Virus record (IMG/VR): IMGVR_UViG_3300032290_001086
Strand: one strand, 5' to 3'
DNA length: 64,000 bases
Source of the DNA: a virus
Taxonomy: Duplodnaviria > Caudoviricetes
A program made the position numbers and the translations under genes. Under the pieces are notes generated by a model, which saw nothing but the letters and a program-made list of their open reading frames with translations, was not told the DNA's origin and searched no databases. This document shows, one piece after another, positions 15,276 through 42,300 of the stretch; within the stretch, counting starts at the first letter, position 1; every line of letters starts with the position of its first letter.

Positions 15276-15845
15276 ATGAAACAAATCATTCCAGCAGTCA
15301 TGCCACCACTGCTACCTGAAGAAAAGCAACTGCTCACAAACAAGTCAGTGTATTCGGGAGAATCGTGTACAAGCGAAGTAATGAAATATTGCCAGATGAA
15401 AAGTCTCAATACTGCAGTACCACATATTGATGAAGGAGTTGATTTGTTGATTGAAATGAGTAGAAATAGTTGGCTTTCTGCTCAGGTGAAAAAGATTTCA
15501 TATCGTGTTGAAAAGGGAAAGTCGAGATATGCATTTAAGTTTCAAAGTGAAACAAGCAATTACTCCGAAAAGGATATTGATGTATTCTATCATGTACTAA
15601 TGACACATTATAGAACACTCATCTGGAGGTCTGATTCAAAGCATGTTCCCAGGAGAAATGATGGAGGCTTCGTAAAGAATACAAATTTAATTTTAGATAG
15701 ACCAAAGGCTAAACTAACATCAAGCACAAAATGTCAATTTCAAGAAAAGCCTGAGTTAATCTATCAAGTATATCATCCATTGGTTATTATTAAGAATCTA
15801 CAATTCTTTAATCCATCCAGTACACCAATAGAACAATATCTATGA
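15276..15845 (+). CDS. putative PD-(D/E)XK endonuclease (I-Ssp6803I-like)
   Basis: GE..V...P..DEGVDLLI....AQVKK...Y...DIDVF pattern. Confidence 0.6.
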   Translation: MKQIIPAVMPPLLPEEKQLLTNKSVYSGESCTSEVMKYCQMKSLNTAVPHIDEGVDLLIEMSRNSWLSAQVKKISYRVEKGKSRYAFKFQSETSNYSEKDIDVFYHVLMTHYRTLIWRSDSKHVPRRNDGGFVKNTNLILDRPKAKLTSSTKCQFQEKPELIYQVYHPLVIIKNLQFFNPSSTPIEQYL

Positions 15846-16024
15846 ATAAGGAAGAGAAAGAAACTTTAAGAATAGAGTTTGCTAAGATAGCACTTACACA
15901 GTTAGCAAGTAATGTAATAGAAAAGAATTTCCAGACAGCAGCATCACAAGCAGAGATGGAACCTGATGAGTTGATAGCAGCATATTGTTGGCAGATAGCA
16001 GACTCAATGATGAAGTATATGTAG
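15842..16024 (+). CDS. hypothetical protein
   Basis: ATGA overlap; LR.EFA..AL...CWQIADSMM pattern. Confidence 0.6.
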   Translation: MNKEEKETLRIEFAKIALTQLASNVIEKNFQTAASQAEMEPDELIAAYCWQIADSMMKYM

Positions 16025-16120
16025 TTCCGCATAGTTTTCCACAAGGCTGTGGAAAAAGTAGTATAATTATTAACAATTATTAAATGTAATAAAAAATATA
16101 GTTGAGAGATGTATGTAGAG

Positions 16121-16176
16121 AGAGAATTATTAAGTATATACTGTATAAAGAGATAATTATTAAGTATATACTGTAT
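16121..16176 (+). repeat. AT-rich direct repeat, 30-bp period
   Basis: AGA(G/T)AATTATTAAGTATATACTGTAT at 16121 and 16151. Confidence 0.9.
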
Positions 16177-16237
16177 GTGTCCGAGGGTGTCAGAGAAAGT
16201 ATCTGAAATGTACGGAGGTGCAGCAGTCTTGGCGAGC

Positions 16238-16266
16238 ATTATATCATCACTCGGCCAATTTGTCAA
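16238..16266 (-). promoter_or_regulatory. perfect-consensus sigma70 promoter, minus strand
   Basis: Reverse complement TTGACA-AATTGGCCGAGTGATGA (17 bp)-TATAAT. Confidence 0.85.
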
Positions 16267-16428
16267 GCCCCCAGTCCCAAAAAACCCATAAGGATTCCAA
16301 ATCATTCCGAGACCACCCATAAGGAATCCATATATAAGGACTTCAAATCACTCAGAGCCCCTTCGATAGTTTTCCACAGGGCTGTGGAAAACCTGGGGAA
16401 AACTATTATTAACAATTATTAACTATAC

Positions 16429-16457
16429 TTGACACACATCCCGAATATGTGTATAAT
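16429..16457 (+). promoter_or_regulatory. perfect-consensus sigma70 promoter
   Basis: TTGACA-17 bp-TATAAT. Confidence 0.85.
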
Positions 16458-16513
16458 GACTCTGTTAGGGGTGACAAATTATTATTAATTATTAACTATA
16501 CATCATATCATAC

Positions 16514-16567
16514 ATAAGCAACACTAATCAAAGACCCCTTGACAACCTCAGAGAAACCCCCTATAGT
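16514..16567 (+). promoter_or_regulatory. early promoter with LysR-type operator
   Basis: ATAAG-CAACA-CTAAT, 10 bp, TTGACA-17 bp-TATAGT. Confidence 0.75.
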
Positions 16568-16590
16568 GAACACGTTCACACATTGAACCC

Positions 16591-16764
16591 ATGAAATTCT
16601 CCCTCGACTCAAAGTTTCTTTACATAGGAGCTAATACTAGGGCAAAAACAGGTGATGAACAATTTGGAATTAGTATTGGTAAGTATTACTTTGGTCTATA
16701 TGATAACAGGCCATGTGCAGGTAAGCTTAACAAGTATGGTGCATTAGATATTAACAATAAGTAA
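16591..16764 (+). CDS. small hypothetical protein (57 aa, MKFSLDSKFLYIG..)
   Basis: ORF directly after a promoter; not in the ORF track. Confidence 0.6.
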   Translation: MKFSLDSKFLYIGANTRAKTGDEQFGISIGKYYFGLYDNRPCAGKLNKYGALDINNK

Positions 16765-16770
16765 ATTATT

Positions 16771-16977
16771 ATGCTTACAATGAACTATTCTGATTTGGTA
16801 CAATTCTTTCAAACTAAATCCATGCAACAAGATGAGATGATTGATTGTATTACTGCACAACTGTATAACAATAATTATAGTTTATTGGAAAAGATTATTG
16901 AGGAGTATGTGTTAGGTTTAAATGAAGAAGAATTGAATACATTAGAACATTTTATCAATACTAATCTCACTGATTAG
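16771..16977 (+). CDS. hypothetical protein
   Basis: ORF. Confidence 0.55.
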   Translation: MLTMNYSDLVQFFQTKSMQQDEMIDCITAQLYNNNYSLLEKIIEEYVLGLNEEELNTLEHFINTNLTD

Positions 16978-18633: not shown

Positions 18634-19302
18634 ATGAACACTGCACTCACCCTGGTTTCCAGCAACGCCAAGACTGGCCCCATCCCCACCAGCACCAGCA
18701 GCCGTGAGACCTGCCCTGCAACCTGCCCTTTCTACAATAAAGGTTGCTACGCTAAATCTGGCCCCCAAAACATTCACTGGAAGAAAGTTACTGAGGGTGA
18801 GCGAGGTGTAAACTTTCAGGAGTTTACTTCTGCAGTTCGTAAACTCCAGCGTGGCCAACTCTGGCGCCACAATGTATCTGGTGACCTCCCCCACGTTCTG
18901 GGTGACATTAATGCTCCCATGGTATCTGCACTGGCTGATGCAAACAAAGGCCGCAAAGGGTATACCTACACCCACCACGTTCTCAACAGCCACAACCTGG
19001 AAGTAATCAAAGAAGCTAACTCTAAAGGCTTCACAATCAATGCTTCCACTGAGGATGTTGAGGTGGCTGATGCTATCATGACTGAGCACAACATTCCTGC
19101 AGTTGCTGTTGTCAAGTCTGACAAAACCGAACGATTCTACAAAACAGAATCAGGTCGTAAAGTTATCACCTGCCCCGCTACGATTCATGAAAACGTAACG
19201 TGTGCAACTTGTGGCCTTTGTGCAAAGGCTGATCGTGACTTTATCATTGCATTTCCTGCACATGGTAATGCTAAGAAAACAGTCAACGAAATCGTAGCCT
19301 AA
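18634..19302 (+). CDS. Cys-rich putative metal/Fe-S protein (GP88-like)
   Basis: SNAKTG..TCPATCPF...GCYA, RHNVSGD, YTYTH, CPA..TCATCGLC motifs. Confidence 0.7.
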   Translation: MNTALTLVSSNAKTGPIPTSTSSRETCPATCPFYNKGCYAKSGPQNIHWKKVTEGERGVNFQEFTSAVRKLQRGQLWRHNVSGDLPHVLGDINAPMVSALADANKGRKGYTYTHHVLNSHNLEVIKEANSKGFTINASTEDVEVADAIMTEHNIPAVAVVKSDKTERFYKTESGRKVITCPATIHENVTCATCGLCAKADRDFIIAFPAHGNAKKTVNEIVA

Positions 19303-25066: not shown

Positions 25067-27202
25067 ATGGAACTACCATCAGTTGCTGCTCTTGAATTTG
25101 AGCAGATAAAAGCATCTATTAAAAATTACATAAAGACTAAAACAGACTTTCAAGATTATGATTTTGAAGGTTCAAACCTTTCAATGCTTGTTGATGTACT
25201 AGCTTACAATACGATGTACACATCGTATAATGCAAACATGATTGCAAACGAGTTAAATCTCGATACTGCAGTCATCCGTGATAACGTAGTATCACATGCT
25301 AAAAAATTAGGATATACTCCGAATTCATATACGTCTTCTAAACTTAGCTGTAATATTTCCGTTACTGGAGTTTCATTGTATGATTCAATAAAAATATTAG
25401 CAGGTCCAGTATTCTCAATAGTTCAAAATAATCAATCATATACTTATATTTTACGTGATGATATTTTAATTAATACTAATAGAAATAATACAGTAAACTT
25501 TGAAAATATTACTTTTCAGGAAGGACTTGAATTTACAATTTCATATGTTGTAGACGAAAATAACGAAAATCAAAGATTTTTTGTTCCCAACAACTTTGTT
25601 GATGTATCTTCTATTACAGTTTCCATTATTGCCGATGAAACTGGAGTTACTCTGAATCAACAAGAATCAGTAGAAGATTTCTACACAAGAAAAACCTCAA
25701 TTGTAGGAGTTTCTTCATCAGATAAAGTATTTTTCATAGAAGAGATTCAAGATCAAAAATACGAAATTGTATTTGGCGATAATGTAATTGGAAGAAAATT
25801 AGAAAATGGTGAAATTGTAATTATTAGATATGTTGTAACTAATGGTTCTGTTTGTAATAATTTTACAATTCTTCCTACTAATTTTGTTGGTACTGTTGTA
25901 GGTTCTAGAACTAGAAATGTAGTACCAGATGAAATTATTCCATCTTCAAATATTGTACCTGCAATATTAGGTAAAACCGATGGAGGTTCTGAATTTGAAG
26001 ACATCAAATCAATTAAATACAGAGCGCCTCGATGGTATTCTGCACAACAACGAGCAGTAACTCCATCTGACTATGAAAGTATTATTCAAACTATCTACGC
26101 AAATTCAGAATTGATTAATATTACAGGTGGAGAGAAACTTTCCCCACCTCAATTTGGAAAAGTAATTATTTGCATTAAACCAAAGGTAGGAGATCTTATA
26201 AGTCAGGGAGAAAAAATTAGAATAGTAAATGAGATTAAAAATTATATTGTAGGATCAATCACTCCTGTAATTATTGATGCAATTCCTTTCTATATTGAAG
26301 TTGAACCTGTAATTGTATATGATCAAACTAAAACTAGAAAAAATTCAGCTCAAATAAAGAGTCTGATTGATAGTGCAATATTAAACTTTAATTTCAGTGA
26401 TGAATTTAAAAATTTTGGTGGAGTTTATTCTTCTTCCAAACTACTTTGTGATTTAGAAGCAATTGATTCATCTATTAAATATATTTTAATTAGAACTTTA
26501 TACAGAAGAGTAATTAATTTATACAATAATATAGAATTTAAATATGAAGTAGATTTTTATACAAAAATTAAGAGTAAACTTTCATCAAAGTATACTCTAA
26601 TTAGTGATTTATTTTGTGTTAAAGGAATCGCTGAGCCAGTATTTTTATGTTCATTAAGCGATGATTTTTCTGGTTGTGATGTGGATAAAAATATTTACTT
26701 ATCTACTGTATCTGGAAGAATAATTTCTAAGGTTGGAGAAATTGATTATGATAGTGGAAAAATTAATTTTACTCTAACTTCATGCCAAGACACTCCAATA
26801 AATATCTATGTAATTCCTGTTTTCCCAGATCTTACTACTGGATTTGATACCTTCCCAGTTCTTGAACAATATCAGTATGAAATTATTGATGTAAATGATG
26901 CTAATAATGATACATTAAATCCAGAACCTGTATTGCCAACTCCATCAAATGATTCAAATGGAGACTCATCTGGCAATTCTCCATTCGATGATGTTCCTGG
27001 AACTACTGTTGTAAATCCAGATGGAAGTGTTACTACAGTAAATCCAGATGGGAGTACAACTACTACGAATCCAGATGGAAGTACATTTACATCTCCACCA
27101 TCCGATGGTGGAACTGGTGGAGAAGGAGATCCAGGAACAGATCCAAATATTAACCCAACACTTGATACATTCACTCCAGAGACTACAAATATCTGCTCAT
27201 GA
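25067..27202 (+). CDS. g6: baseplate wedge subunit gp6
   Basis: DFQDYDFEGSNLS.L.DVLAYNT, FGDNVIG, QQRAVT..DY motifs. Confidence 0.93.
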   Translation: MELPSVAALEFEQIKASIKNYIKTKTDFQDYDFEGSNLSMLVDVLAYNTMYTSYNANMIANELNLDTAVIRDNVVSHAKKLGYTPNSYTSSKLSCNISVTGVSLYDSIKILAGPVFSIVQNNQSYTYILRDDILINTNRNNTVNFENITFQEGLEFTISYVVDENNENQRFFVPNNFVDVSSITVSIIADETGVTLNQQESVEDFYTRKTSIVGVSSSDKVFFIEEIQDQKYEIVFGDNVIGRKLENGEIVIIRYVVTNGSVCNNFTILPTNFVGTVVGSRTRNVVPDEIIPSSNIVPAILGKTDGGSEFEDIKSIKYRAPRWYSAQQRAVTPSDYESIIQTIYANSELINITGGEKLSPPQFGKVIICIKPKVGDLISQGEKIRIVNEIKNYIVGSITPVIIDAIPFYIEVEPVIVYDQTKTRKNSAQIKSLIDSAILNFNFSDEFKNFGGVYSSSKLLCDLEAIDSSIKYILIRTLYRRVINLYNNIEFKYEVDFYTKIKSKLSSKYTLISDLFCVKGIAEPVFLCSLSDDFSGCDVDKNIYLSTVSGRIISKVGEIDYDSGKINFTLTSCQDTPINIYVIPVFPDLTTGFDTFPVLEQYQYEIIDVNDANNDTLNPEPVLPTPSNDSNGDSSGNSPFDDVPGTTVVNPDGSVTTVNPDGSTTTTNPDGSTFTSPPSDGGTGGEGDPGTDPNINPTLDTFTPETTNICS

Positions 27203-30200
27203 GAAACTTAGAAGAAAACCTAGTAGACCTTTCAACTTTAATTGGAAGTCAATTTCCATCTTTTGTTTCACAAAATAATAGAAAATTTATATCATTCTTG
27301 ACTTCGTATTACGAGTCTCTAGAATCTAAATATCAGCCTCTAGATGTTATTTCTAATCTTTTAGATTACTATAACATTAAAAATTTTACTGCGACTGAAC
27401 TAACCGAATATACCGAATTACAAAGTGCAGTATCGTTAACTGATACTATTATTACTGCAGCAAGCACTAAAGGATTTCCCGCAAATAATGGGTACATTAA
27501 AATCAATGGAGAAATAATATTTTACCGATCAAAAACATTAACCACGTTCAATGGTTGTGTAAGGGGAACCAGTGCATTCGTATTGGAAACAGTTCCTTCT
27601 ACAAATGTAATTTTACAAGATAGTGAATTAAATTTAGATACTAAAACAAAAATACATCAGCATAGTGTTGGAGATAAAGTAGAAAATATTGCATCTACTT
27701 TTACATCAGAATTTCTGAGAAGAGTAACTGCGGAGATTTCACCAAATCTTCCAAAAAAATTAGTATCGGATTTAAATCTAAGCAGTTTCTTAACTCAAGT
27801 AAAAAGTTTTTATACTTCAAAAGGAAGTTTAAACTCACATAAAATTTTATTCCGAATTTTATTCAATGATAAGAAGATTAAACTTCGTGTAAGAAATAGA
27901 GGTCGTGGAGCAAAAATAGTTCTAACCAATTACAGTGGAGGGGTTGGATTTCAGCTTCCAGATATTTTAAAAACAAATACTCAAAATGTTTCTGTCGGAG
28001 CAATTAAAATTTATTTAAATTCTGTTGATAATATTGAAGTAAATGATCAAGTAATCAATACTTCACTACAAGAAGAAACTATAGTACTTTCAAAAAATAC
28101 AACTGAAAATTCTATTACAATAAACAATCCAGCAAAATTTACAATTCCTTCCAGCTCTCAAATAAAAATTGTAAGGATTGTTGGGTATTCTATTATTAAT
28201 GGTGGACAAGATTATGATAATAGAAAAGATTCATTTGGAAATTTAATAAATCCGCCAAAAATTGAAGTAATTGGATCTGGATTTGGAATTAAAAATGATA
28301 CAACTAATATTATTCCTCAAACAGCCACAGTAAAAGTTACTGATATTGACTCTTCTGGAGCTATTACTCAAATTAACATTTTTAATAGAGGAATCAGTTA
28401 CGTAGGTCCTATTACATGTAGAGTAAGTGAAAGAACTTTTAATCAAGACCAAATTGTATATAATGAATCAAATACTGGTTCTGGAAGAGTTGAATTCTGG
28501 GACGCTGGTTCAAATGAATTAACTTTATATAATACGTCAGGATATTTCAGAGTAGACGATGAATTAATTGGAGAAGGATTTGAAGAGCCTAGGGCTTTTA
28601 TTTCAAAAGCGTATCCAAGAACAGATATCAATAGAAAGGGCAATCCATCCGTACAAATTATTTCTTTAGATCCTGAACTAGAATTTCCTAAAAACAATAC
28701 TATTAAACCATCTTCATCCACATATTATGGTAAAAAAATTATTCATGGTAAGATAGTAAAAAATAACTTATATAAAACTGTAAATAATACCGTAGTCATA
28801 CCTAGATTACTTTCTATAATTCAACAACAAGATTTAGAGAGTGGAATTAAAGGAGTAAATTTAGAAGTAACTGAATTTAGCAATATTTCAACAGATATAT
28901 TTGAATTTTCAATAGAAGCTAATGCAGATTATAAAAATATTGTTGCTGTACCTTCAACTAAAGTAGTAATTGAAAGAACTGGTACATATAGTCTAATATT
29001 TGGAGGAATTAAATTTGAAACTATTACTGTAGATGACGCAACTGGATTTCCACTAGAACAAGGTTATATCTTTATTGATGGCAGAGTATTCTTCTATCAA
29101 TCTCGTAGTGCAAATCAATTTTTTAATTGTGTCTATGTTAGTGATTATACTAATTCTTTTGTAATTCCAGTAAATACTGAAGTTTATGCATATGGAAAGA
29201 ATACAAAAACTATTCCATTCAATGCAAATGAACCAATAAAAGAAGGTGACTATAGATATGTTGGGAATTATTACTATATTGCATTAAACTCTGGAACTAC
29301 TAGTATTGCATCTCCGTCTCACACTTCTGGAGTTAGAAATATAGATGGAATTTTATGGGAATATAAAGGAAAAAATCTTATTCCATATTTCTTAGACATT
29401 TACACTGATGGTGATTTTACTCAAGAACCAGTACAAATATTACCCCTTGGTTTGATTTCTGATGTAACAGTTGAATCTACAGGATCTTTGTATTCTTCTA
29501 CATCATATGAATTTAATTCAACATTAGAAAATAAGATTACACTACCATCTATAACTTCTTGGAATTTAAATTTAGATTTTACTATTACTTCTAGTACATT
29601 ACCATCATACGAAAATACTACAGGAGTAAACTCTGTATATGTTTATGACGGGTTTTCTTATGTAACTTCTTCTGGAATTCCTCCATACCTACAATCAATC
29701 GTAGGAAGAAAAAATTGCTATAATCAAAAACTTTTAAGAAGAATTCCAATAAGTGTACAAAAAGGAAAAGGAGTAATAACAGAATCTAAAAGAAATGTTG
29801 GAATTACTATAGATGGTATTGAAATACAATCTCCAAAAGGGAATAAGATAAATTATGGTTATTTAAATAAAATTTTTATTGGAAATCCTGGAAACTATAA
29901 AGTTCCCATTTCAAGTTCTGGTGGATATACTCAATTTAATTATCTTAAATATCCAGTAATTCTTGTAGAAGGAAGTAATACAGTACTTACAAATACCTCC
30001 ACAAGAACTCTTTTATATATTTCTAGTAGTCTTTCCAAAGTAGACATTACAAAATTAAGTACATCAGTCTTAACTGGATATACATCAAAGCCAAGAATTG
30101 AAATTATTAATAATAATCCAGCAAATGTAAAAACATTTAATGAATCCAACTTAGATACATTTTTTAGTCTTGTAAATATTACAAATCATGGATTTACTAC

Positions 30201-33200
30201 TGGAGAAAAAATAACATTTACAAGTTCTATAGAAGAGATTGGTCAATTAAGAAATAATTTTATATATTATGTTGGTGATATTACAAATAATTCATTTAGA
30301 TTGTACTTTAATAAGGATGACGCAGTAGAAGGTGGAAATACATTTGTTTCATTTAGAAATAATTTTACTATATTAAATCTAACTGGAGCTATAAAAACTG
30401 ATACTAGAAACCCTGTAGATTTTGAACAAATTGATTTAGATTTAAGTTTTAACGAAACTACAAATATTATTGATAACATTATCATTAAGAATCCAGGAAA
30501 AGGATATTTAAATTCACCAACAATACGAATTGTTGGTGGCGGAAAGAATGCTCAGACTCTTCCACTAGCTACGGCAGATGCAGATATATTCACTTTCCGT
30601 GGAGAATTAATTTCGGGTGCAAATTTTGATAAAGATAATAAACAGGAAATTGATGTATATGGGCTCATAACAACCAGATTTAGAACTACCCCAAGATTAA
30701 CTATTAGTGCAGGATCAAATGCATCTTTTACTGTATTTACTGCAAATGGATCTATAACTTCAGTACCAATAGATAATGCAGGGTTATATTATTTTACTGA
30801 ACCTTCTGTTCAAATTGATGGTGTAGGTACAGGAGCAATTTTACGAGCTAGAAATGATGTTTCTACTGGAAGAATTACTTCAATTGATATCATTAATCCT
30901 GGAACTGGATATACTATATCTCCTGTTGTCCGAATTATTCCCTCTGGAAGCGGTGGTAGTGCATCAGCAGAATTAAGATCTTGGACTTTTAATTTAAGTA
31001 ATAGACTTACTTCAGATGATTATGGTGGATATCTATATAACGTTACAGATGATGATCCAAAACCTACAAATACTCCATCTGATACATTATTAATACCACA
31101 TTTAAATAAAAATAATTTACCTACTGCATTATTTGATGCTCAATATTTAATTTTAAAATCAACAACAAATTTAAATAATTTCTATAATGTTTCTTCTGCA
31201 TCACATTCTCAAATCATAGGGTGGGCATATGATGGAAACCCAATTTATGGAAAGTATGCATATTCTAGTGAATTTGATACTACATCAAATATAGTTAAAA
31301 TGACAACATCATGGAAACTAAGAACAACTAGGGTTGGTGGTCATACTACATCACAGTATCCATTGGGAGTCTTTGTTGAAGATTATGAATATGTAAAAGA
31401 CTATGGAACTTTGGACGAATATAATGGAAGATATTGTATAACTCCAGAATTTCCAAATGGAACCTATGCATATTTTGTAACCGATGAATTTCCATACTTT
31501 GTTGGACTTGAATATTATTCAACTTTGGATCAATTTAACATTTGTAGCGATAGAAGAAATGATAAAGTACCATCTAAATTTACTAGAATTAATCAACAAT
31601 TAAATTCATATTATCCAAAAGAATTCAAAACTACTTCACGTTCTATTGTTAATGTAAATAAAATTACTCCTGGTGGAGTCGATAAAATTGTTGTTGAAGC
31701 TGGAGGAAGTAATTATAAAATTGGAGATAAATTAATTGTAAATAATAGAGAAACTAAAGGAAGTAGTGCCGCTGGGTATGTTTCAAGAATAAAAGGAAAA
31801 AATATATTAGATTACGCATTGTTATCTCTTCAAGATGAAGGAGAAAACTCTGTAAATTATGTTGAAGTAACTACACAAAGTTCTCACGGTCTTGCACTAG
31901 GAGATACAGTGTATTTTGATTTCGCAAAAGATCAAACTGTATATCAAAATATAACCTTACAAGGAAATACCGTATTTTTAAATAGAGCCAAAAATGTAAA
32001 AATTAACACCGCATTTACTTCAAATGCAATCTTTTATTATGACATTGAAGGTCAATTAGTTTATATGGATTCAAATGCAATAAAATTTGAATCTGATGGA
32101 ATAAAAATAAAAACAGATTTAATTCCAGAAATTCTATACCTACTGGTCAATACCAATTTGTACGAGGTAAGAGCAATTGATTATGCAATAAAAGGTCCTC
32201 AAGAAGTTATTAAAATTATTAGTTATAATAAATTTAGAGTACTAAAACCAACTGATTTCTCCGAAGAAGGTATAGATGAAATTTTTTACACCACAGATTC
32301 AATTAATACCATAGGTGAAATTTATACAGCTTCAATTTCAAATAGTGGTTCAAATTATATTTCACTTCCAGAAATTTCTGGTGTCTCCAGCAATACTGGA
32401 AGTGGGGCGTTGTTACAATTTGATTCCAATACTATAGGGCAGTTAAAGAAATTTAATTATTCAATAGTCGGAGAAAAATTTACTACTAATAAAACTATAC
32501 AATATGATTTAGATATTCCGTATGTTGCAAAAATTCTAGGTAACTTTGAAATTTATGAAGTTGAGATAGTTTATGGTGGAGTTGATTATATTTCAACAGA
32601 TAAAATTAAAGTCAACGGTCAAATAAATCCTAATTTTGAATTCAATGTAATCGCAAACCGAGGCACTATTCTTTCAGTTGAAGTTATTAGAGGTGGATTT
32701 AATTTAACATCAATTCCAACATTAACTGTAGATTCTTTAACTGGTACTGGAGCAGTGCTAACTGCAAAGATAAGAAGAAAAAGAATATTCGCTAATGACA
32801 TATTGAAATTAGGAAATAATACAAATGAATCCACTGCTAGTATTAAAAACTTTGATCCATACGGATCCACATTAGAATTTAAAGTACTTTCGGGAGAAGT
32901 TCAAGAATTTGATACTGTATACACATCTGATGGATTTCCATATGGAAAAATAGCTCATATAAGAAAAGCATCTGCATCTGCAAGATCTAATTCATATTCT
33001 TCTATAGCTCCAGAATTTTTAAATAATTATGGATTCCTTAATGATAGTACTCAGAAAATTTTAGATAGTAATTATTATCAAGATTGGTCGTATACATTAT
33101 CTTCTCAGCAAAATATAACTGATTGGAAGCCTGAAGTAGAAAATAATACCCATGCTGCAGGATTTAAAGTTTTTGGTAAAAAGGCAATTCAATCAAGAAA

Positions 33201-36200
33201 ATCAAGATTTGAAAGAACAGAAGATATTGTAAAGAGTTCTGTAGTATTTTCTGCCAATTTCTGGAGTTCTGCTACTACACCAGTTAATTTAGGACTTAAA
33301 CTTTCAAAATGTACCGAACAATATATTGCAATTACTAGAATTGATGGGTTTAATGTTGGTGATTACATTTATGGAGCTTCTAGTGGAGCAAAAGGAAAAA
33401 TTTCTTCTATTGAAGAAAATTATATGGAAGTTCAACTTATTGCTGGGATTGAATTTGAGATAGGAGAATATGTTTCAACTGTTACCATTGATTTTATTAA
33501 TGGGATTGATGAAGAAACTAAATCTAGTTTACTATTTTATAGTGGTATTTTACAACAACCTTTTGTTGCATATTCAGTTTCTGACACTAATATTATTCCA
33601 AAATTTATTGTTAATGACGAAGATGAACTAACTTTGTATACAATTCAAGGAAAATTTGATGTGTTAGATGTTTATGCTGCAAATACTGGTAGTACTATTC
33701 CTCTTACAGCAATTGGACTTCCATTTACTCCTGCAAATAAACAACATTTATTAATCTCGGTAAACGGTATCGTTCAAAATACTTCTGACATTACTTTAAA
33801 CGGTAACATTATCACTATTACAGAATCTTTAAGTAGGGGATCTAGATGTTTCATTTTACATACAAATACTTTAAACCAATTAATATTAACTAGAGTAAAT
33901 TCAACAACATATACAATAAATTATACTCCATCTACATCTCAACAATTAGTATTATTTGTACGTGGTGTCGGTCAGTCCCATCTATTAACTGATTATACGG
34001 TATCTGGAAATCAAATAACATTATCTGAGTCAATTGAAGGTGAGATATTTGGATGGTTTATTAATGAGCCTGTAACTGCACAAAGAATTTTAGCACAAGA
34101 TTTAAATGATAGAAAAATTCTAGATTCAAGAAATTGTACTATTGCAAGGGTAACAGAGTTTATAGAATCTTCTAAAATTGATTATGATTATGGTAGAGAT
34201 TCTATATACGAAGTTAATAAACAATTGATTGATGGAACTTTAGTATCAGATTCGGATAATCAAACTGTATTTGGATTTGACACTAAATTTAAACTTACTA
34301 CTCCAGAATATTCATCAAGTTACGGTGAAGTAATAAATCCTATAGTATTTAATGGAGTAAATACCACTTATGCAATGACTTTCTCTGATGGTAAGCCATA
34401 TACTCCAAAAAATGGAAAAAATTCAGTTATTGTTAATGTCGATAACAAAGTTTTAGATTCTACTCAATATAACATTAGTGGTTCTAATATAACATTTAGC
34501 ACAGTATATAGTTCTTCAAATTATTGTACTGTTACTGACTATATTAGCTCTCATATAGTAAATGATGGAAACCTTTCTAGTGCTAAATTAGATGATCTTC
34601 AAGTATCATTTAATGGAACTAGAAAAACATTTAATTTATCATATAAGGGAGTTCCTCAGTATGTAAGGAATACTACTGATGTGTTTACGATTAAAAATAA
34701 CCTATTTTTGATCCCAGACACAACTTCTCATACAGTAGCTCAAAATAAGATAACATTAACTCAAGCTCCAACTTCTTCTGATAATATTAAATTTGCATAT
34801 TTTAATAGACAATTAGGATTGACTCCAAACACCAATTTAATTATTGATCCTATTCAAACTTTTGACGGAAATTTAGATACATTCCCTATAACTATTGATG
34901 GTGTCCTGTTTACACCTGTTAGTGTTTATAATTTATATGTAATTCGTTCTGGTGTATATCAAAGACCAAATATTGATTTTACTACTAGTACTTCAAATAT
35001 AACATTCTCGCAAGCTCCAGTTACTGGCGAAGAGATTATAATATTCTACTCATACAACAACTTAAATATAAATCAATATCTTACTGATTTTATATCTAAT
35101 GGTAGTTCAAGCACAGTAAATCTTGGAATGATTCCTCCAAATGAAGATGATTTATTTGTACTAAGAAATGGAGTATTTCAAAATCCATTGATTGATTTTA
35201 CTTTAAGTAGTAGTAATTTGACATTTACTACCCCATTAATTTCAGGTGAACCTATTTTTATAATGTATACTACAGCATCAATTAAAATTGGAGTTACAAG
35301 TGCGGTAAATAATACAATTGTATTAAATACTATGGATTATAATACACATATTAATGGTGTGTTAAGTCAAATTCAATCAATGATTTTATATGTAAATGGT
35401 GTTCCAAAAATTTACAACAAAGACTACACCATAAGTGGCACTACAATTACTTTACTCGGACCAGCTATAGATTCAACTACTACTGTATTTGTAATTAAAT
35501 ACCCCAATTTAACATTTGTTGATGATATTGAATATTTCCCTGATGGAAACAGAACGAGATTTAAGCTTCTCTATAATGGTCAAAACTTAACTCAATCTGA
35601 AATATTAAGTGATGCTGATATTTTAATTAGTAAAAATGGAATTATACTAGATCCTGGAACTCAATATAATATTAATGTAGCTAGAACTTTTGTTGATTTT
35701 ACTATTGCTCCTCTTGCAAATGATAATTTAGTTGCAATTAAAATGAATAATAGTGTTCATGTTCCTTTAACATTAGTAAATGGAAATACTTACTCTACTA
35801 CTGCAAATATCACAAGTTATAACTTAAAAAATGTCGTAATATTTTCAAACAATACCTGGAAATTTTATGATGCTGGCGATTTCACATACAACTTCACCAA
35901 TTCTAGATTTACTTTATCCTCTTCACATACAACAGGAGTTTTATTTGGAATTATTTTTGATGGGGATTTTAAATATCTAGATCAACTTAATACTCCATTT
36001 AATGGAACAAATAACTTATTCAATATGTTTATAGGTGAAGAGAATTTTATTCCAGATACATATACAAGTTTAACCCCTGTCGCTTCAAATATTGTAATTA
36101 ATAAAAATGGTAAAATTCTAGATCCAGGTGTTGAGTATACATTGAACGGAACCATTGGAAGTCAAGTTCAATTTTCTGTTGCTCCTATAAGTTCAGATAA

Positions 36201-37662
36201 AATTGAAATACGTTCTATTGGGCATTTTGTAAAACTTGATTCTATAACTTCTAATATTGCTGGTAATACTACATTTAATTTAAGATTGAATGGAACTCCA
36301 TATTATCCAAATGGAACTATTGAAAGACCAAGAAAACATGAGAATCAATTAATTGTATATAAAGATGGAAATATTCAAAGTCCTTTATATGATTATTATG
36401 TTGACAATGATAAATTAATTTTTATAAATCCTTTCACTGCGTCTAAGTTAGTAATATTAGATTATGTTGGTACATATAAAGATGTAGAAATTACTGATAC
36501 CAACTATACAATATCAGTTGGAGATAAAATTCAACTTGGTGGTGAATTTGAAAGTAGAAAAGTTACTGAAATAGTATCCCCAACAATATTAAAAACTGAA
36601 ACTTATACAGGAAGAAAAGCATCTGGTTTTTCTGCTATTGCGGCTGTCAATTCTAGTTCTAGAAAACTTACTGGTATTACCATCATATCAGGTGGAAGTG
36701 GTTATAGTTATCCCGTGATATTAAGAACTAAGGGTATCGGAATTAGTGCAAAAGCAGTAGCAAATGTTGATCAAATTAAAGGTAACGCAATAACTACTCC
36801 AGTAACAATTGAATATAATGGAAGAAATCTATTTGGAACTCCATCTCTAATTCCAACTACATATGGATATGTGTATAATAAAAATATTCTTGAATCATCA
36901 TCGGTATCAATTTCTACTATATTAAGAACTTCGCTTAATAATTCTTCTGAAATTATTAAATTAAGAAATTGCTTAAACTTCCCTCAAAATCCTCCTGTAA
37001 TCGAAGTAGTAACATTATTAGGATATCCTGGAGGCTCTGGTGCTGTTTTCAGAGCATTTGTAAGCAAAAATAGAATACGAAAGGTTGAAGTTGTTAGTGG
37101 AGGAAGTGGGTATAATGAAAAATATACCGTATTAAATGTTACTGGTGGTGGAGGATTTGGTTGTCTATTAGTTCCTACTATTAATACTACCACAGGAGAA
37201 ATACTATCTGTTTCAGTTAAAAATGAAGGAGAAAGCTATGACACATTTAAAGCAATAATTTATGATGATACAAATACTATTCAATCTGAAACTATAGAAT
37301 ATACCTATAGTTCTCATATTAGTAATACAATAGTTGTAACAAATTACACTGGCAACGGAACTACAACAGTAACTGCATCTGTTGCTTCCACCTCTGGATT
37401 TACAATTGGTGATATAATTACTATTTCTGGTGCTTCTGGAACTCAGCAAGAAAAGTTGAATGGAAGTTGGTTAATTGCATCAGTAAATACTAGTAACAAT
37501 ACATTCACATTTGTTGTAAATTCTTCAGTAACTTCTGGAATATATTCAGAAGATTTGGGAGTAAGTACACGAACTGTTGATACATTATTTGGTTGTACAA
37601 GATCATCTTCTCCAATTAGTCATGATTTGAACTCCAAAATTTATTCTGATAATTATCTATAA
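27199..37662 (+). CDS. g7: baseplate wedge initiator gp7-like giant virion protein with YHYH-type domain and repeated beta modules
   Basis: N-terminal QFP.FV..FL..YY, FY.SKGS..SHKILFR; HSQIIGWAYDGNPIYG..LDEYNGRYCITPEFPNGTYAYF; YYQDWSY; lies between g6 and g8. Confidence 0.8.
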   Translation: MRNLEENLVDLSTLIGSQFPSFVSQNNRKFISFLTSYYESLESKYQPLDVISNLLDYYNIKNFTATELTEYTELQSAVSLTDTIITAASTKGFPANNGYIKINGEIIFYRSKTLTTFNGCVRGTSAFVLETVPSTNVILQDSELNLDTKTKIHQHSVGDKVENIASTFTSEFLRRVTAEISPNLPKKLVSDLNLSSFLTQVKSFYTSKGSLNSHKILFRILFNDKKIKLRVRNRGRGAKIVLTNYSGGVGFQLPDILKTNTQNVSVGAIKIYLNSVDNIEVNDQVINTSLQEETIVLSKNTTENSITINNPAKFTIPSSSQIKIVRIVGYSIINGGQDYDNRKDSFGNLINPPKIEVIGSGFGIKNDTTNIIPQTATVKVTDIDSSGAITQINIFNRGISYVGPITCRVSERTFNQDQIVYNESNTGSGRVEFWDAGSNELTLYNTSGYFRVDDELIGEGFEEPRAFISKAYPRTDINRKGNPSVQIISLDPELEFPKNNTIKPSSSTYYGKKIIHGKIVKNNLYKTVNNTVVIPRLLSIIQQQDLESGIKGVNLEVTEFSNISTDIFEFSIEANADYKNIVAVPSTKVVIERTGTYSLIFGGIKFETITVDDATGFPLEQGYIFIDGRVFFYQSRSANQFFNCVYVSDYTNSFVIPVNTEVYAYGKNTKTIPFNANEPIKEGDYRYVGNYYYIALNSGTTSIASPSHTSGVRNIDGILWEYKGKNLIPYFLDIYTDGDFTQEPVQILPLGLISDVTVESTGSLYSSTSYEFNSTLENKITLPSITSWNLNLDFTITSSTLPSYENTTGVNSVYVYDGFSYVTSSGIPPYLQSIVGRKNCYNQKLLRRIPISVQKGKGVITESKRNVGITIDGIEIQSPKGNKINYGYLNKIFIGNPGNYKVPISSSGGYTQFNYLKYPVILVEGSNTVLTNTSTRTLLYISSSLSKVDITKLSTSVLTGYTSKPRIEIINNNPANVKTFNESNLDTFFSLVNITNHGFTTGEKITFTSSIEEIGQLRNNFIYYVGDITNNSFRLYFNKDDAVEGGNTFVSFRNNFTILNLTGAIKTDTRNPVDFEQIDLDLSFNETTNIIDNIIIKNPGKGYLNSPTIRIVGGGKNAQTLPLATADADIFTFRGELISGANFDKDNKQEIDVYGLITTRFRTTPRLTISAGSNASFTVFTANGSITSVPIDNAGLYYFTEPSVQIDGVGTGAILRARNDVSTGRITSIDIINPGTGYTISPVVRIIPSGSGGSASAELRSWTFNLSNRLTSDDYGGYLYNVTDDDPKPTNTPSDTLLIPHLNKNNLPTALFDAQYLILKSTTNLNNFYNVSSASHSQIIGWAYDGNPIYGKYAYSSEFDTTSNIVKMTTSWKLRTTRVGGHTTSQYPLGVFVEDYEYVKDYGTLDEYNGRYCITPEFPNGTYAYFVTDEFPYFVGLEYYSTLDQFNICSDRRNDKVPSKFTRINQQLNSYYPKEFKTTSRSIVNVNKITPGGVDKIVVEAGGSNYKIGDKLIVNNRETKGSSAAGYVSRIKGKNILDYALLSLQDEGENSVNYVEVTTQSSHGLALGDTVYFDFAKDQTVYQNITLQGNTVFLNRAKNVKINTAFTSNAIFYYDIEGQLVYMDSNAIKFESDGIKIKTDLIPEILYLLVNTNLYEVRAIDYAIKGPQEVIKIISYNKFRVLKPTDFSEEGIDEIFYTTDSINTIGEIYTASISNSGSNYISLPEISGVSSNTGSGALLQFDSNTIGQLKKFNYSIVGEKFTTNKTIQYDLDIPYVAKILGNFEIYEVEIVYGGVDYISTDKIKVNGQINPNFEFNVIANRGTILSVEVIRGGFNLTSIPTLTVDSLTGTGAVLTAKIRRKRIFANDILKLGNNTNESTASIKNFDPYGSTLEFKVLSGEVQEFDTVYTSDGFPYGKIAHIRKASASARSNSYSSIAPEFLNNYGFLNDSTQKILDSNYYQDWSYTLSSQQNITDWKPEVENNTHAAGFKVFGKKAIQSRKSRFERTEDIVKSSVVFSANFWSSATTPVNLGLKLSKCTEQYIAITRIDGFNVGDYIYGASSGAKGKISSIEENYMEVQLIAGIEFEIGEYVSTVTIDFINGIDEETKSSLLFYSGILQQPFVAYSVSDTNIIPKFIVNDEDELTLYTIQGKFDVLDVYAANTGSTIPLTAIGLPFTPANKQHLLISVNGIVQNTSDITLNGNIITITESLSRGSRCFILHTNTLNQLILTRVNSTTYTINYTPSTSQQLVLFVRGVGQSHLLTDYTVSGNQITLSESIEGEIFGWFINEPVTAQRILAQDLNDRKILDSRNCTIARVTEFIESSKIDYDYGRDSIYEVNKQLIDGTLVSDSDNQTVFGFDTKFKLTTPEYSSSYGEVINPIVFNGVNTTYAMTFSDGKPYTPKNGKNSVIVNVDNKVLDSTQYNISGSNITFSTVYSSSNYCTVTDYISSHIVNDGNLSSAKLDDLQVSFNGTRKTFNLSYKGVPQYVRNTTDVFTIKNNLFLIPDTTSHTVAQNKITLTQAPTSSDNIKFAYFNRQLGLTPNTNLIIDPIQTFDGNLDTFPITIDGVLFTPVSVYNLYVIRSGVYQRPNIDFTTSTSNITFSQAPVTGEEIIIFYSYNNLNINQYLTDFISNGSSSTVNLGMIPPNEDDLFVLRNGVFQNPLIDFTLSSSNLTFTTPLISGEPIFIMYTTASIKIGVTSAVNNTIVLNTMDYNTHINGVLSQIQSMILYVNGVPKIYNKDYTISGTTITLLGPAIDSTTTVFVIKYPNLTFVDDIEYFPDGNRTRFKLLYNGQNLTQSEILSDADILISKNGIILDPGTQYNINVARTFVDFTIAPLANDNLVAIKMNNSVHVPLTLVNGNTYSTTANITSYNLKNVVIFSNNTWKFYDAGDFTYNFTNSRFTLSSSHTTGVLFGIIFDGDFKYLDQLNTPFNGTNNLFNMFIGEENFIPDTYTSLTPVASNIVINKNGKILDPGVEYTLNGTIGSQVQFSVAPISSDKIEIRSIGHFVKLDSITSNIAGNTTFNLRLNGTPYYPNGTIERPRKHENQLIVYKDGNIQSPLYDYYVDNDKLIFINPFTASKLVILDYVGTYKDVEITDTNYTISVGDKIQLGGEFESRKVTEIVSPTILKTETYTGRKASGFSAIAAVNSSSRKLTGITIISGGSGYSYPVILRTKGIGISAKAVANVDQIKGNAITTPVTIEYNGRNLFGTPSLIPTTYGYVYNKNILESSSVSISTILRTSLNNSSEIIKLRNCLNFPQNPPVIEVVTLLGYPGGSGAVFRAFVSKNRIRKVEVVSGGSGYNEKYTVLNVTGGGGFGCLLVPTINTTTGEILSVSVKNEGESYDTFKAIIYDDTNTIQSETIEYTYSSHISNTIVVTNYTGNGTTTVTASVASTSGFTIGDIITISGASGTQQEKLNGSWLIASVNTSNNTFTFVVNSSVTSGIYSEDLGVSTRTVDTLFGCTRSSSPISHDLNSKIYSDNYL

Positions 37663-39360: not shown

Positions 39361-42300
39361 ATGCAAAATACTAAGACTAATTTATCTCCATATTTTGATG
39401 ATTTTGATAGATCTAAAAACTATCAAAGAGTACTCTTCAAGCCAGGAACTTCAGTTCAATCGAGAGAACTAACTACACTACAAAGTATTTTACAAAATCA
39501 AATTGAACGATTTGGTCAGCATGTATTTAAAGAAGGATCTGTAGTAATTCCTGGTCAGGTTGGGTACGATCTATTATATAATGCTGTATTAATTCAGCCA
39601 TTAATTATTGGAAATAGTGTAGAAAATATTAGAGAATCTTTAGTAGGAAAAACTTTAAGAGGAACCCTTTCAAACGTAAAGGCAAAAGTAGTTAATACAA
39701 TTAGTGCAGAAGAATCAGAAAAAAATTATATTACATTTTATGTAAAATATACAGCATCTGGAAATATTGTAAATAATGTACAACAGACAAAATTTCAAAA
39801 TAATGAAGTTTTGGTAGATGAAAATAATAATCAAGTAGCAGTTACTGCGGTAAGAAATGCTAGTGATTATACTGGTAGTGCAGCATTCATTACTAATGGA
39901 GTATATTTTATCCGAGGATTTTTTGTAGAAGTACCAGAGCAAAATATAATTTTAGATCAATATAGTAATCTTCCAAGATATAAAGTTGGATTGGATGTAA
40001 TAGAAAGCATTATTACTGCAGAAGAAGATAGTACAATATATGATAATGCAGTAGGTTCTTCAAATTTTTCTGCTCCTGGTGCAGATAGATTACAAATTAG
40101 AACAATATTTACTAAAAAAGATTTTAATTTTAACGATACCTCTTCATTCGTTGAACTTTTACGTTTTGACGGAGAAAAAGTAATTCCAGTTACAAAACTG
40201 GCAGAAAATTCTGTGTATGCAGAATTAGAAAAAAATCTAGCAAGAAGAACATATGATGAATCTGGTAATTATACAATTAAAGGATTTAATTTAAAAATTA
40301 GAGAAACTTATAATAATGGTGAAAATAATGGGGTTTATAATTTTAATGAAGTAACTCCAACAGGGGAGAAAGTTTTAAATAGAATTCCAAATCAAACTGA
40401 TGGTTTGGCTATTGATGGTAGAGATTACTATACAGTAGAAATTTCTCCAGGTAAAGCATACATCAAAGGATATGAAATTGATAATAGAGATAAAAAATAT
40501 TTAACCATTCCAAAACCAAAGAAATCTTCATCTGTAAATAATAGAGGTATTGTATCTTCATATGGTACATATTTTGAATTAAATACTTCTAGTATTAGAG
40601 GTATAGTTCAACCAGGAAATACCGTATTTGTAAAAAGTACTACAAATAATGTAGATACAACTTTAGGAAAAGCAAGAGTTTTATCTTTATTAGCTGATGG
40701 AAAATTATTTGTTATTGATTTAACTTTATATGTCATAATTACGGTAAATGTAAATCTTCAGAATACTTTACAAGTAGGAGATTTCATTATTAGTAATCAA
40801 GGTGCTCAAGGAATTATTGAATCAGTTAGCCCTGGAACTTCAAATAGCACAATTACTTTACGACAAGTAACAGGAACTTTCTATCAAGGTAATACTATTA
40901 AAAATAGTAGAAATACTACTACATATTCAATCGCTAGTGTAAAAGCAAATAAAATTGAAGAAGCTTCAAAAGTAACATCAACCTCATATAATTTTACTGC
41001 AAATCTTGCATTGGAGCAAGTAAGTTTAAGTGGAACAAGTTTTAGAGTTAATAATAATGTCTTGACTGGAAGTTCAACGAATTTTCAAAATGAAATAACA
41101 ACTCCAATGAAGGTATTAATTGGGGATACAATTTCCATTGCGGTCACAAAAGGAGCTGAATCCTTAACTTTAGATAATACTGCAACAAATGGAACTTATT
41201 ACAATGTTAAGAAGTTAGTCCCTACATTAAAGAATTTAAACCCAACTCAATTCTTAAAAATTTTAGATACTGCTATTAAGTCTACATCTGACTTTACATA
41301 CTATAGAACAGTTACTGAAGTTAAAGTAGTAGATGTAGGAGGAATATTTACAATTTCTCCTACAGAAGATGTTACATTAGTAACAGAAGGAATTTTAGTT
41401 ACTAATGTAAATGGAATAGTTGCTCATGCTGCTACGTTAATAAGCTCATCTAGTATGAGAATTCAAGTTGCATCTAATCTACAAGGAACTGAAGTATTTG
41501 TAACGTATAAGAAAAGAATTAATAATCCTTCATTAAGAACAAAAACAGCAAGAAAATTTAAGTTCTTACAAGTTTCAAAAAGTATTACAGATTCTGCAGT
41601 TTATGGAACTAGACTAGTTGATAATGAAATTTCATTGAAATTTCCAGACGTATATAAAATTCATGCCATTCATGAAGCAACTAGATCAGATATCCAACAA
41701 ACAGAATTTATTGATAATATTTCAGTAAACGATTCAAGTGATATTAATCCTGGAGATATATTAACCAAGGATGATATTTCTGCAAAGGTAATTTCCAAAG
41801 ATGGTTTAAAGTTATACGTAAAATATGCTAATGAAACTAAAAAATTTCCTGTAGGAAGTAATTTAGCTATTCAGATTGTAGTATCTACTAACAGACAAGT
41901 TACAGGTAGATATATAACATCTTCAGTATATGGAAAATATAGAGATATTACAAGTAGTTTTCACCTAGTTAAAAATGATTCTGGAGAAGCATATAATGTA
42001 TCAAAATTAGTAAGAACTACAAATAGTCCAACACCTATTAATAAATTTGTTGTAATCTATGATTATTTTGAACATTTTAATAATACTAATGATTTTTATA
42101 CCGTAAATTCTTATAGTATTCAAGAAGTTAATTATGAAAATATAACTCTAACCTCAGATGGATACCCTTATACTGATATTGTAGATTTCAGACATGAAGT
42201 TCAAAGTGGATCTACTTCTGGAGGTACACTAGAATCTCCATATGAAGAAAATACTTCAGCATTGGATTACTATTCCATTCCTAGAATAGTTACTTCATTC

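Follow-up and report, generated by a model that had tools for sequence, protein, structure and literature searches.

With a helicase and a primase of their own, T4-like phages have no obvious need for the initiator of host replication. So what are clustered sites of the host DnaA type doing in a single non-coding gap of a phage of this kind? T4-like cyanophages are among the most abundant viruses of lakes and oceans, and we know of no replication origin that has been mapped in any of them. Only a predicted single origin, for Syn9, is mentioned in PMC2984593, and our search of the literature found no paper that connects cyanophages and DnaA boxes. The locus described here offers a concrete origin candidate, namely a single-copy cassette that combines a promoter, iterons and an AT-rich block, to which sites for the host initiator appear to have been attached repeatedly, in phages ranging from marine S-PM2 to the freshwater phage analyzed here.

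The window, by which we mean the whole 64-kb stretch of DNA that was analyzed, encodes an RNA ligase A and a Dda-like helicase along with structural genes for baseplate wedge proteins, two giant structural proteins, a head-closure protein (PHROG name Hc2), the large terminase, the tail sheath, the portal and the scaffold. Judged by this gene content, it is a divergent T4-like cyanomyovirus. When compared with the records of isolates, the helicase yields 419 matches, all of them to cyanophages and the best, to S-BM3, at 59% identity, so that gene content and helicase matches alike bear out an earlier note on this DNA, which had spoken of a T4-like cyanophage. The stretch is present at 98-99% identity in lake and freshwater metagenomes of other studies; the lineage is evidently a freshwater one, and the host presumably a picocyanobacterium. 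A blastn search with the region 15800-16800 returned zero matches among isolate phages, and the flanking protein (15276-15845), used as a query, found no relatives among viral contigs.

The gap itself extends over 566 bp (16025-16590) between two small plus-strand ORFs without known family, one of 60 aa (15842-16024), in place of which most relatives have a different gene, and the other of 57 aa (16591-16764). A coding reading of the gap was considered and rejected: its sole long ORF (minus strand, 15808-16320) is closed in most relatives, and no frame is open throughout them. Scanned with Rfam (E up to 1) and for tRNAs, the gap gave nothing credible, and Pfam and PHROGs searches with 10 neighbouring small ORFs detected no DNA-binding or Rep-like protein.

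Within this gap lie all four exact copies of the 9-mer TTTTCCACA that are found in the window, at 16035(+), 16048(-), 16370(+) and 16383(-). They are arranged in two copies, 96% alike, of a 26-nt element, ATAG-TTTTCCACA-(A/G)GGC-TGTGGAAAA, at 16031-16056 and 16366-16391. In the first of these, hereafter pair 1, ATAG is followed by TTTTCCACA (16035-16043, plus strand), AGGC and TGTGGAAAA (16048-16056, a box on the minus strand), the two boxes facing each other head to head across a 4-bp spacer. The second is part of a triad (site 2, 16366-16402) that consists of TTTTCCACA (16370-16378, plus strand), GGGC, TGTGGAAAA (16383-16391), CC and TGGGGAAAA (16394-16402), the last being the fifth box, with one mismatch. 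A relaxed box, TTATACACA, is furthermore present on the minus strand at 16448-16456. The four exact boxes and the one with a single mismatch span 368 bp. The gap's own composition leads one to expect 0.0066 boxes, the probability of four or more being ~8e-11, and still ~1e-8 once corrected for 113 windows; such palindromes are expected at ~2.5e-6 per window. The two pairs are not to be taken as two independent events because one duplication may have made both. The 9-mer is the DnaA box of cyanobacteria (PMC4674748), and the boxes quite probably bind the DnaA of the host. In all these respects, that is, the two 26-bp elements with their inverted 9-mers, the fifth box, the cyanobacterial type of the 9-mer, and the gene-free gap of about 570 bp, the earlier note had described the DNA correctly, and the clustering at this one place, which it had named as support for its reading, holds for the exact copies within the 64-kb window.

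The boxes are set among putative promoters and repeats. The only two perfect (12/12) sigma-70 promoters of the 64 kb are located here, back to back: the leftward promoter P_L (minus strand, 16238-16266; TTGACA, 17 nt, TATAAT, with TG present) and the rightward promoter P_R (plus strand, 16429-16457; TTGACA, 17 nt, TATAAT), the relaxed box falling inside the spacer and -10 element of the latter. Two further candidates are read on the plus strand, P1 (16038-16067; TCCACA, 18 nt, TATAAT; 10/12), which pair 1 overlaps at the -35 element and spacer, and P3 (16539-16567; TTGACA, 17 nt, TATAGT; 11/12), ahead of the ORF at 16591-16764. P_L is directed toward two iteron-like direct repeats, an AT-rich block and pair 1, in that order. 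The repeats, of 30 bp each and 93% alike (16116-16145 and 16146-16175), both contain AATTATTAAGTATATACTGTA and the 10-bp palindrome AGTATATACT. The AT-rich block, a candidate unwinding element (16062-16101), begins 6 bp past pair 1 and is the least stable 40-mer of the window (dG -35.8 vs a mean of -48.1, sd 4.1). It includes the widely conserved AAATGTAATAAAAAATATA (16082-16100) and the first of three copies of a 24-nt AT-rich element that begins with ATTATTAACAATTATTAA (16066-16089, 16405-16428 and 16478-16501); the first two copies each come after a box pair, and copy 2 abuts the -35 element of P_R on its upstream side, which is the position of an UP element. The triad thus lies between P_L and P_R, just before the AT-rich 24-mer of the latter, and two 31-bp repeats (..CCCATAAGGAxTCCAxAT..; 16272-16333) also occupy the space between the two promoters. 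The earlier note had listed an AT-rich repeat after each pair, which is what we find, together with the third copy that was absent from its list; its direct repeat of 30 bp was located at 16116/16146, and the easily melted DNA that it had proposed next to pair 1 was recovered by the duplex-stability scan. The transcript from P_L would start with a leader (about 16176-16231, minus strand) that is conserved and can form a small nested hairpin, CCG..(UCAG..CUGA)..CGG, for which RNAalifold finds 12 pairs in nine sequences, with a compensatory AU-to-UA change at one pair in four of the nine. A role of the box palindrome as an intrinsic terminator was rejected, given that A's follow the stem on both strands and that a terminator scan found none here.

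Which of these elements belong to the core of the locus, and which do not, becomes clear from the comparison with close relatives. Twelve viral contigs encode a helicase 83-92% identical to that of the window, and the region 16061-16373 is kept in all 12, at 73-83% nucleotide identity, which is the level of the neighbouring genes. For the cassette, conservation in nine relatives amounts to 75-83%. Its alignment comprises nine distinct sequences, with the relatives counted as eight distinct ones. Conserved in it are the AT block, the iterons, the P_L block, the 31-bp repeats and the -35 element of P_R; the -35 hexamers of P_L and P_R are invariant in all relatives, the -10 region of P_L is well conserved, and most relatives have two to three copies of the iteron. 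In some relatives, the iteron palindrome AGTATATACT has given way to ACCATATACT or ACCTTATACT, in every copy simultaneously, and such concerted replacement suggests a cognate binding protein. P3 falls within an extra segment common to the relatives L242 and L245. The boxes follow a different pattern. Exact copies are absent from the cassette in six of the eight distinct relatives; pair 1 is found in the window alone, two contigs (L249 and L250) having three boxes at a similar left edge, and the triad is a ~46-bp insertion or deletion common only to the window and L245/L246. One of the six relatives without boxes, G001, is a complete genome of 172,253 bp with terminal repeats. It contains three scattered exact boxes and no box cluster anywhere in the genome, relaxed consensus included, and its cassette and AT block are single-copy, the only close matches to the iterons being the two copies in the cassette. 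Given that relatives conserve the cassette and not the boxes, the cassette forms the core and the boxes are an addition to it; as far as these genomes go, the boxes are accessory and non-essential in the lineage.

At much shorter evolutionary distances, the boxes are stable. A variant from a lake metagenome (X2), 98% identical to the window, shows 31 differences over ~1.5 kb and zero substitutions within the four exact boxes. Pair 1 is unchanged, the box at 16383-16391 has a 1-base insertion in its A-run, and a G>T change at 16396 makes the third box of the triad perfect. The loop of the triad reads GCCC instead of GGGC (16380-16381), and an inversion of the loop between 98%-identical variants is what would be expected if the inverted arms mediate flipping.

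These comparisons bear on the proposal of the earlier note that the locus is an oriC-like origin dependent on host DnaA, or, in the most demanding form, an essential origin that was copied from or modelled on that of the host. There is a likeness to cyanobacterial oriC (PMC4674748, PMC8287927), in that TTTTCCACA 9-mers are clustered beside an AT-rich block, here the least stable duplex of the window. The phage boxes, however, stand head to head rather than in tandem, and neither dnaN nor dnaA is nearby. Furthermore, the published rule for the unwinding module calls for a box (<=2 mismatches) after which, at a spacing of 0-16 nt, three or more DnaA-trios follow (NTN, read on the strand of the box), an example from S. 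elongatus being TTTTCCACA TTTTCCACA GCCC CTACTACTA (PMC8287927); a scan of both strands of 15990-16620 with this rule found no instance, that is, no box here is followed by trios. Nor did a sample of 400 other cyanobacterial genomes, drawn from across the phylum, contain the head-to-head pair with a 4-nt spacer (N4), which argues that the phage arrangement was not copied from a host origin. The sole carrier among 401 cyanobacterial genomes is the basal cyanobacterium Candidatus Cyanaurora (L446, G006:C33:6572-6706), with seven exact copies of TTTTCCACA within 135 bp, the pair included, and this cluster is probably its oriC. Because the boxes are missing from six of the eight close relatives, among them a complete genome without any cluster, a DnaA-dependent origin is not essential in the lineage, and the phage carries replication genes of its own (PMC2984593). 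Thus, the oriC-like label does not hold, and we consider a host-DnaA-dependent origin in the form in which it was proposed, like an essential origin of this kind, highly improbable.

Could the locus be an origin of another type? In T4 itself, oriF and oriG consist of a promoter and a downstream AT-rich unwinding element and are primed by an R-loop, and oriE combines an early promoter with iterons (PMC3016281). In silico, both layouts are found in the gap: as in oriF and oriG, a promoter, the 12/12 P_L, has the AT block downstream of it on the same strand, and as in oriE, direct repeats, the two of 30 bp, are present at the locus. The phage is T4-like and has T4 replisome genes, and the cassette is non-coding, single-copy and conserved. 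There are also differences from T4 origins, in that P_L belongs to the sigma-70 type of the host rather than depending on MotA, some 130-170 bp separate the start from the AT block, and DnaA boxes of the host are attached to the phage cassette, none being described for T4 in PMC3016281. Along both the window and the complete relative G001, GC skew climbs almost steadily and makes just a small turn near the cassette, without a clear signal of an origin. Taken at face value, the cassette is the best candidate for the start of phage replication.

The hypothesis that we favour, while giving it somewhat less than an even chance, is that the boxes let host DnaA dock in an accessory role and so tune a transcription-primed origin of the T4 type combined with a hub of early promoters. 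Under this hypothesis, the gap would be a single-copy early control cassette with two perfect host-type promoters back to back, of which P_L would transcribe a short structured leader, the two iterons and then the most easily melted DNA of the window. Two modules of DnaA boxes would have been added to it, pair 1 bordering the AT block on its far side and the triad between the strong promoters. Host DnaA would dock on these boxes early in infection and would either help to open, or hold open, the AT block or shift the balance of the neighbouring promoters, and the transcription-primed firing of the origin would thereby be tuned to the level of host DnaA. What the sequences show is the architecture and how far it is conserved, together with the recurrence of such sites in cyanophages and their association with dnaA in bacteria; from this we infer that DnaA binds, that it has a part in replication and in which direction its effect would run. 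The six relatives without boxes, the lack of a cluster in G001 and the missing trios all count against this reading, and so do the GC skew with its lack of a clear origin signal, the helicase and primase that T4-like phages themselves encode, and the many palindromes of other contigs that overlap a -10 element.

The distribution of the sites among viruses provides a further line of evidence. The head-to-head N4 pair was detected in at least 119 stretches of IMG/VR viral contigs, compared to six for a reversed control of the same composition; in the same contigs, a head-to-head pair with a 5-nt spacer (N5) was found in 85 stretches and the everted, tail-to-tail pair in 105, and a pair of the E. 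coli-type box TTATCCACA, TTATCCACA-N4-TGTGGATAA, in 78 (L254-L331). Phages may thus more widely carry head-to-head pairs of whichever DnaA-box type their host uses. In 71% of the 107 distinct viral contexts of the N4 pair, more boxes are present within 150 bp, which identifies the unit as the 9-mer in arrays of mixed orientation, and such arrays fit a protein that binds each box as a monomer. Among 50,697 records of isolate phages, 25 match the pair and 23 of these are cyanophages, including S-BM3, S-RIM32, S-PM2, P-TIM68 and unrelated phages of Aphanizomenon and Planktothrix; the other two matches cover just 16-21 nt of the 30-nt query. Each isolate checked has a single locus with a box cluster, which holds five of the five exact boxes of S-RIM32 (within 1.1 kb) and three of the eight of S-PM2 (within 34 bp, record positions 19231-19264). 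The boxes of S-PM2 and S-BM3 adjoin the same AT block (AAATGTAxTAAAAAATA), and this block stands beside the boxes in at least 29 of the 119 viral loci, a lower bound because the motif pattern was strict. Since homologues of window genes flank the clusters of both S-BM3 and S-PM2, the place of the boxes is syntenic with that in the window. The supposition that the boxes would be conserved in relatives accordingly holds in part: the site type recurs in cyanophages at a syntenic place, and it is absent from most of the nearest relatives.

In bacterial genomes, the head-to-head pair is common as well, with at least 119 loci. The commonest neighbouring gene cluster is dnaA (29 of 119 among the matches listed), at a median distance of 135 bp, the pair lying upstream of the gene in 22 of the 29; dnaN and then yidC rank next. 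Most of the dnaA-linked copies are triads, TTTTCCACA-N4-TGTGGAAAA-N2-3-TGTGGAAAA, and the triad is present in at least 120 bacterial genomes, chiefly of Pyrinomonadaceae. In this family and in other Acidobacteriota (L162, L139, L157), a 27-base triad is strongly conserved ~100-190 bp upstream of dnaA. The triad of L162 and site 2 of the window are identical in boxes, loop (GGGC) and CC spacer except for the single mismatch in the third box of site 2; the bacterial triad differs from that of the phage in being chromosomal and in adjoining the initiator gene.

Against this background, it seems quite improbable that the sites have nothing to do with DnaA and serve instead as the operator of a dimeric regulator of phage or host, or as a hairpin signal in RNA or DNA. 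Such an explanation could appeal to the perfection of the 9+9 inverted repeat, to the 9-bp hairpin that the palindrome forms in the folded P_L transcript, and to the flipping of the loop among close variants, which is the behaviour of cruciform-prone palindromes. Direct, inverted and everted boxes at variable spacing are all enriched, however, as befits a monomer site rather than a dimer operator or a hairpin of fixed form; the boxes match that of the host exactly, the same pair adjoins dnaA in many bacteria, and it is present in unrelated types of cyanophages.

A more serious competitor, even if we consider it unlikely, is that DnaA acts here as a transcription factor, most likely a repressor, of the cassette promoters, much as at the dnaA promoters of bacteria, with no part in phage replication. 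The overlap of pair 1 with the -35 element and spacer of the 10/12 promoter P1 speaks for such a role, as does the triad, which precedes the start of P_R by ~62 to 94 bp. In the 107 viral contexts, a -10-like hexamer often begins 1-2 or 4 nt past the pair, on 39 of the 214 sides at 1-2 nt, and palindromes that overlap a -10 element in many other contigs would fit plain repression. The 22 dnaA-linked bacterial copies that lie just upstream of dnaA are in the position of an autoregulatory operator, and optional presence suits a regulator. The difficulty is that the boxes are concentrated at one cassette and absent from many other early promoters, and that in divergent phages they accompany the AT block and not any one promoter. 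Near-consensus promoters number nine in the window and 29 in G001, so that the restriction of the boxes to one cassette points to a role specific to this locus rather than to general control of promoters. It is because the boxes occur only at the cassette, and accompany the AT block in divergent phages, that we favour accessory docking at an origin and promoter hub over control of promoters.

The triad raises the question of whether the locus could be a device directed at host DnaA itself, either a datA-like sink, as the earlier note had suggested, that titrates DnaA while phage genomes accumulate, or a DARS-like site that forces nucleotide exchange on ADP-DnaA. A datA-type sink combines a cluster of boxes with an essential IHF site that promotes the hydrolysis of DnaA-ATP, and the cassette shares the box cluster with it. 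With DARS1, the likeness is more specific. We read the core of E. coli DARS1 as TTATCCACT-N5-TGTGGATAA-N3-TGTGTATTA (MG1655 813,107-813,141, in the bioD-uvrB gap); its boxes I and II, which are head to head, are essential, box III is supportive, and the spacings are conserved (PMC6868365). Site 2 has the same order and orientation, that is, forward, reverse, reverse, with the first two boxes head to head, and with five boxes in each genome copy, infection would multiply the sites. Site 2, in contrast, has spacers of 4 and 2 bp, L245, the lake variant and S-PM2 have 4 and 3 bp, and DARS1 has 5 and 3 bp (PMC6868365). A strict geometry of the DARS type was also rejected as a general rule for phages, given that everted and N5 pairs occur about as often as N4 pairs, which argues that this geometry is not selected overall. 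We therefore regard a device of either kind as improbable. The triads of Acidobacteriota are likewise oriented as in the E. coli DARS1 core, but their first spacer is 4 bp.

For accessory docking of DnaA near phage promoters, a precedent is available in phage lambda, where host DnaA binds near promoters, pR/pO, that activate ori-lambda (PMC3985674 and references in it). In both phages, DnaA boxes are found beside promoters, and in lambda, transcription from the promoters with DnaA boxes is tied to origin firing, DnaA being a modulator and not the initiator. Lambda encodes an initiator, O, and has its iterons inside a gene, whereas for the phage studied here no initiator gene is known. If DnaA docks at the cassette, the replication state of the host, and with it perhaps the daily cycle of the host, would govern phage replication or early transcription; since relatives with and without boxes exist in nature, the effect of the boxes is measurable by comparison. 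One may go further and suppose that T4-like cyanophages of lakes and oceans have repeatedly recruited DnaA to a single cassette that would control replication, with the triad, in its likeness to the E. coli DARS1 core and to the triad that precedes dnaA in Acidobacteria, as a general DnaA-handling device that senses or resets the DnaA-ATP state of the host. This extension, which we regard as distinctly doubtful, would, if true, couple phage DNA synthesis to the replication cycle of the host through the triad.

Several features outside the cassette deserve mention. The segment 18000-20000 of the window has 54% G+C, compared to ~31-40% in its surroundings, and contains a DUF7227/GP88-like gene (18634-19302; PF23872, E 9e-88). 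Viral contigs of higher GC that carry the pair (L098, L113, L100) represent another type of phage, and in these a GP88-family gene lies 400-600 bp from the pair, in a region that also encodes a ribonucleotide reductase; one locus that was checked has a helicase there too. Two giant ORFs, 27199-37662 (3487 aa) and 39361-45723 (2120 aa), are situated among the baseplate genes of the window, where the local G+C is 28-31%. Finally, in G001, a second perfect minus-strand promoter is found at ~66,200-66,250 (L341), together with a 13-nt copy, with one mismatch, of the P_L block CAGCAGTCTTGTC; a relaxed DnaA box adjoins this promoter, possibly a partial paralogue of the P_L module.
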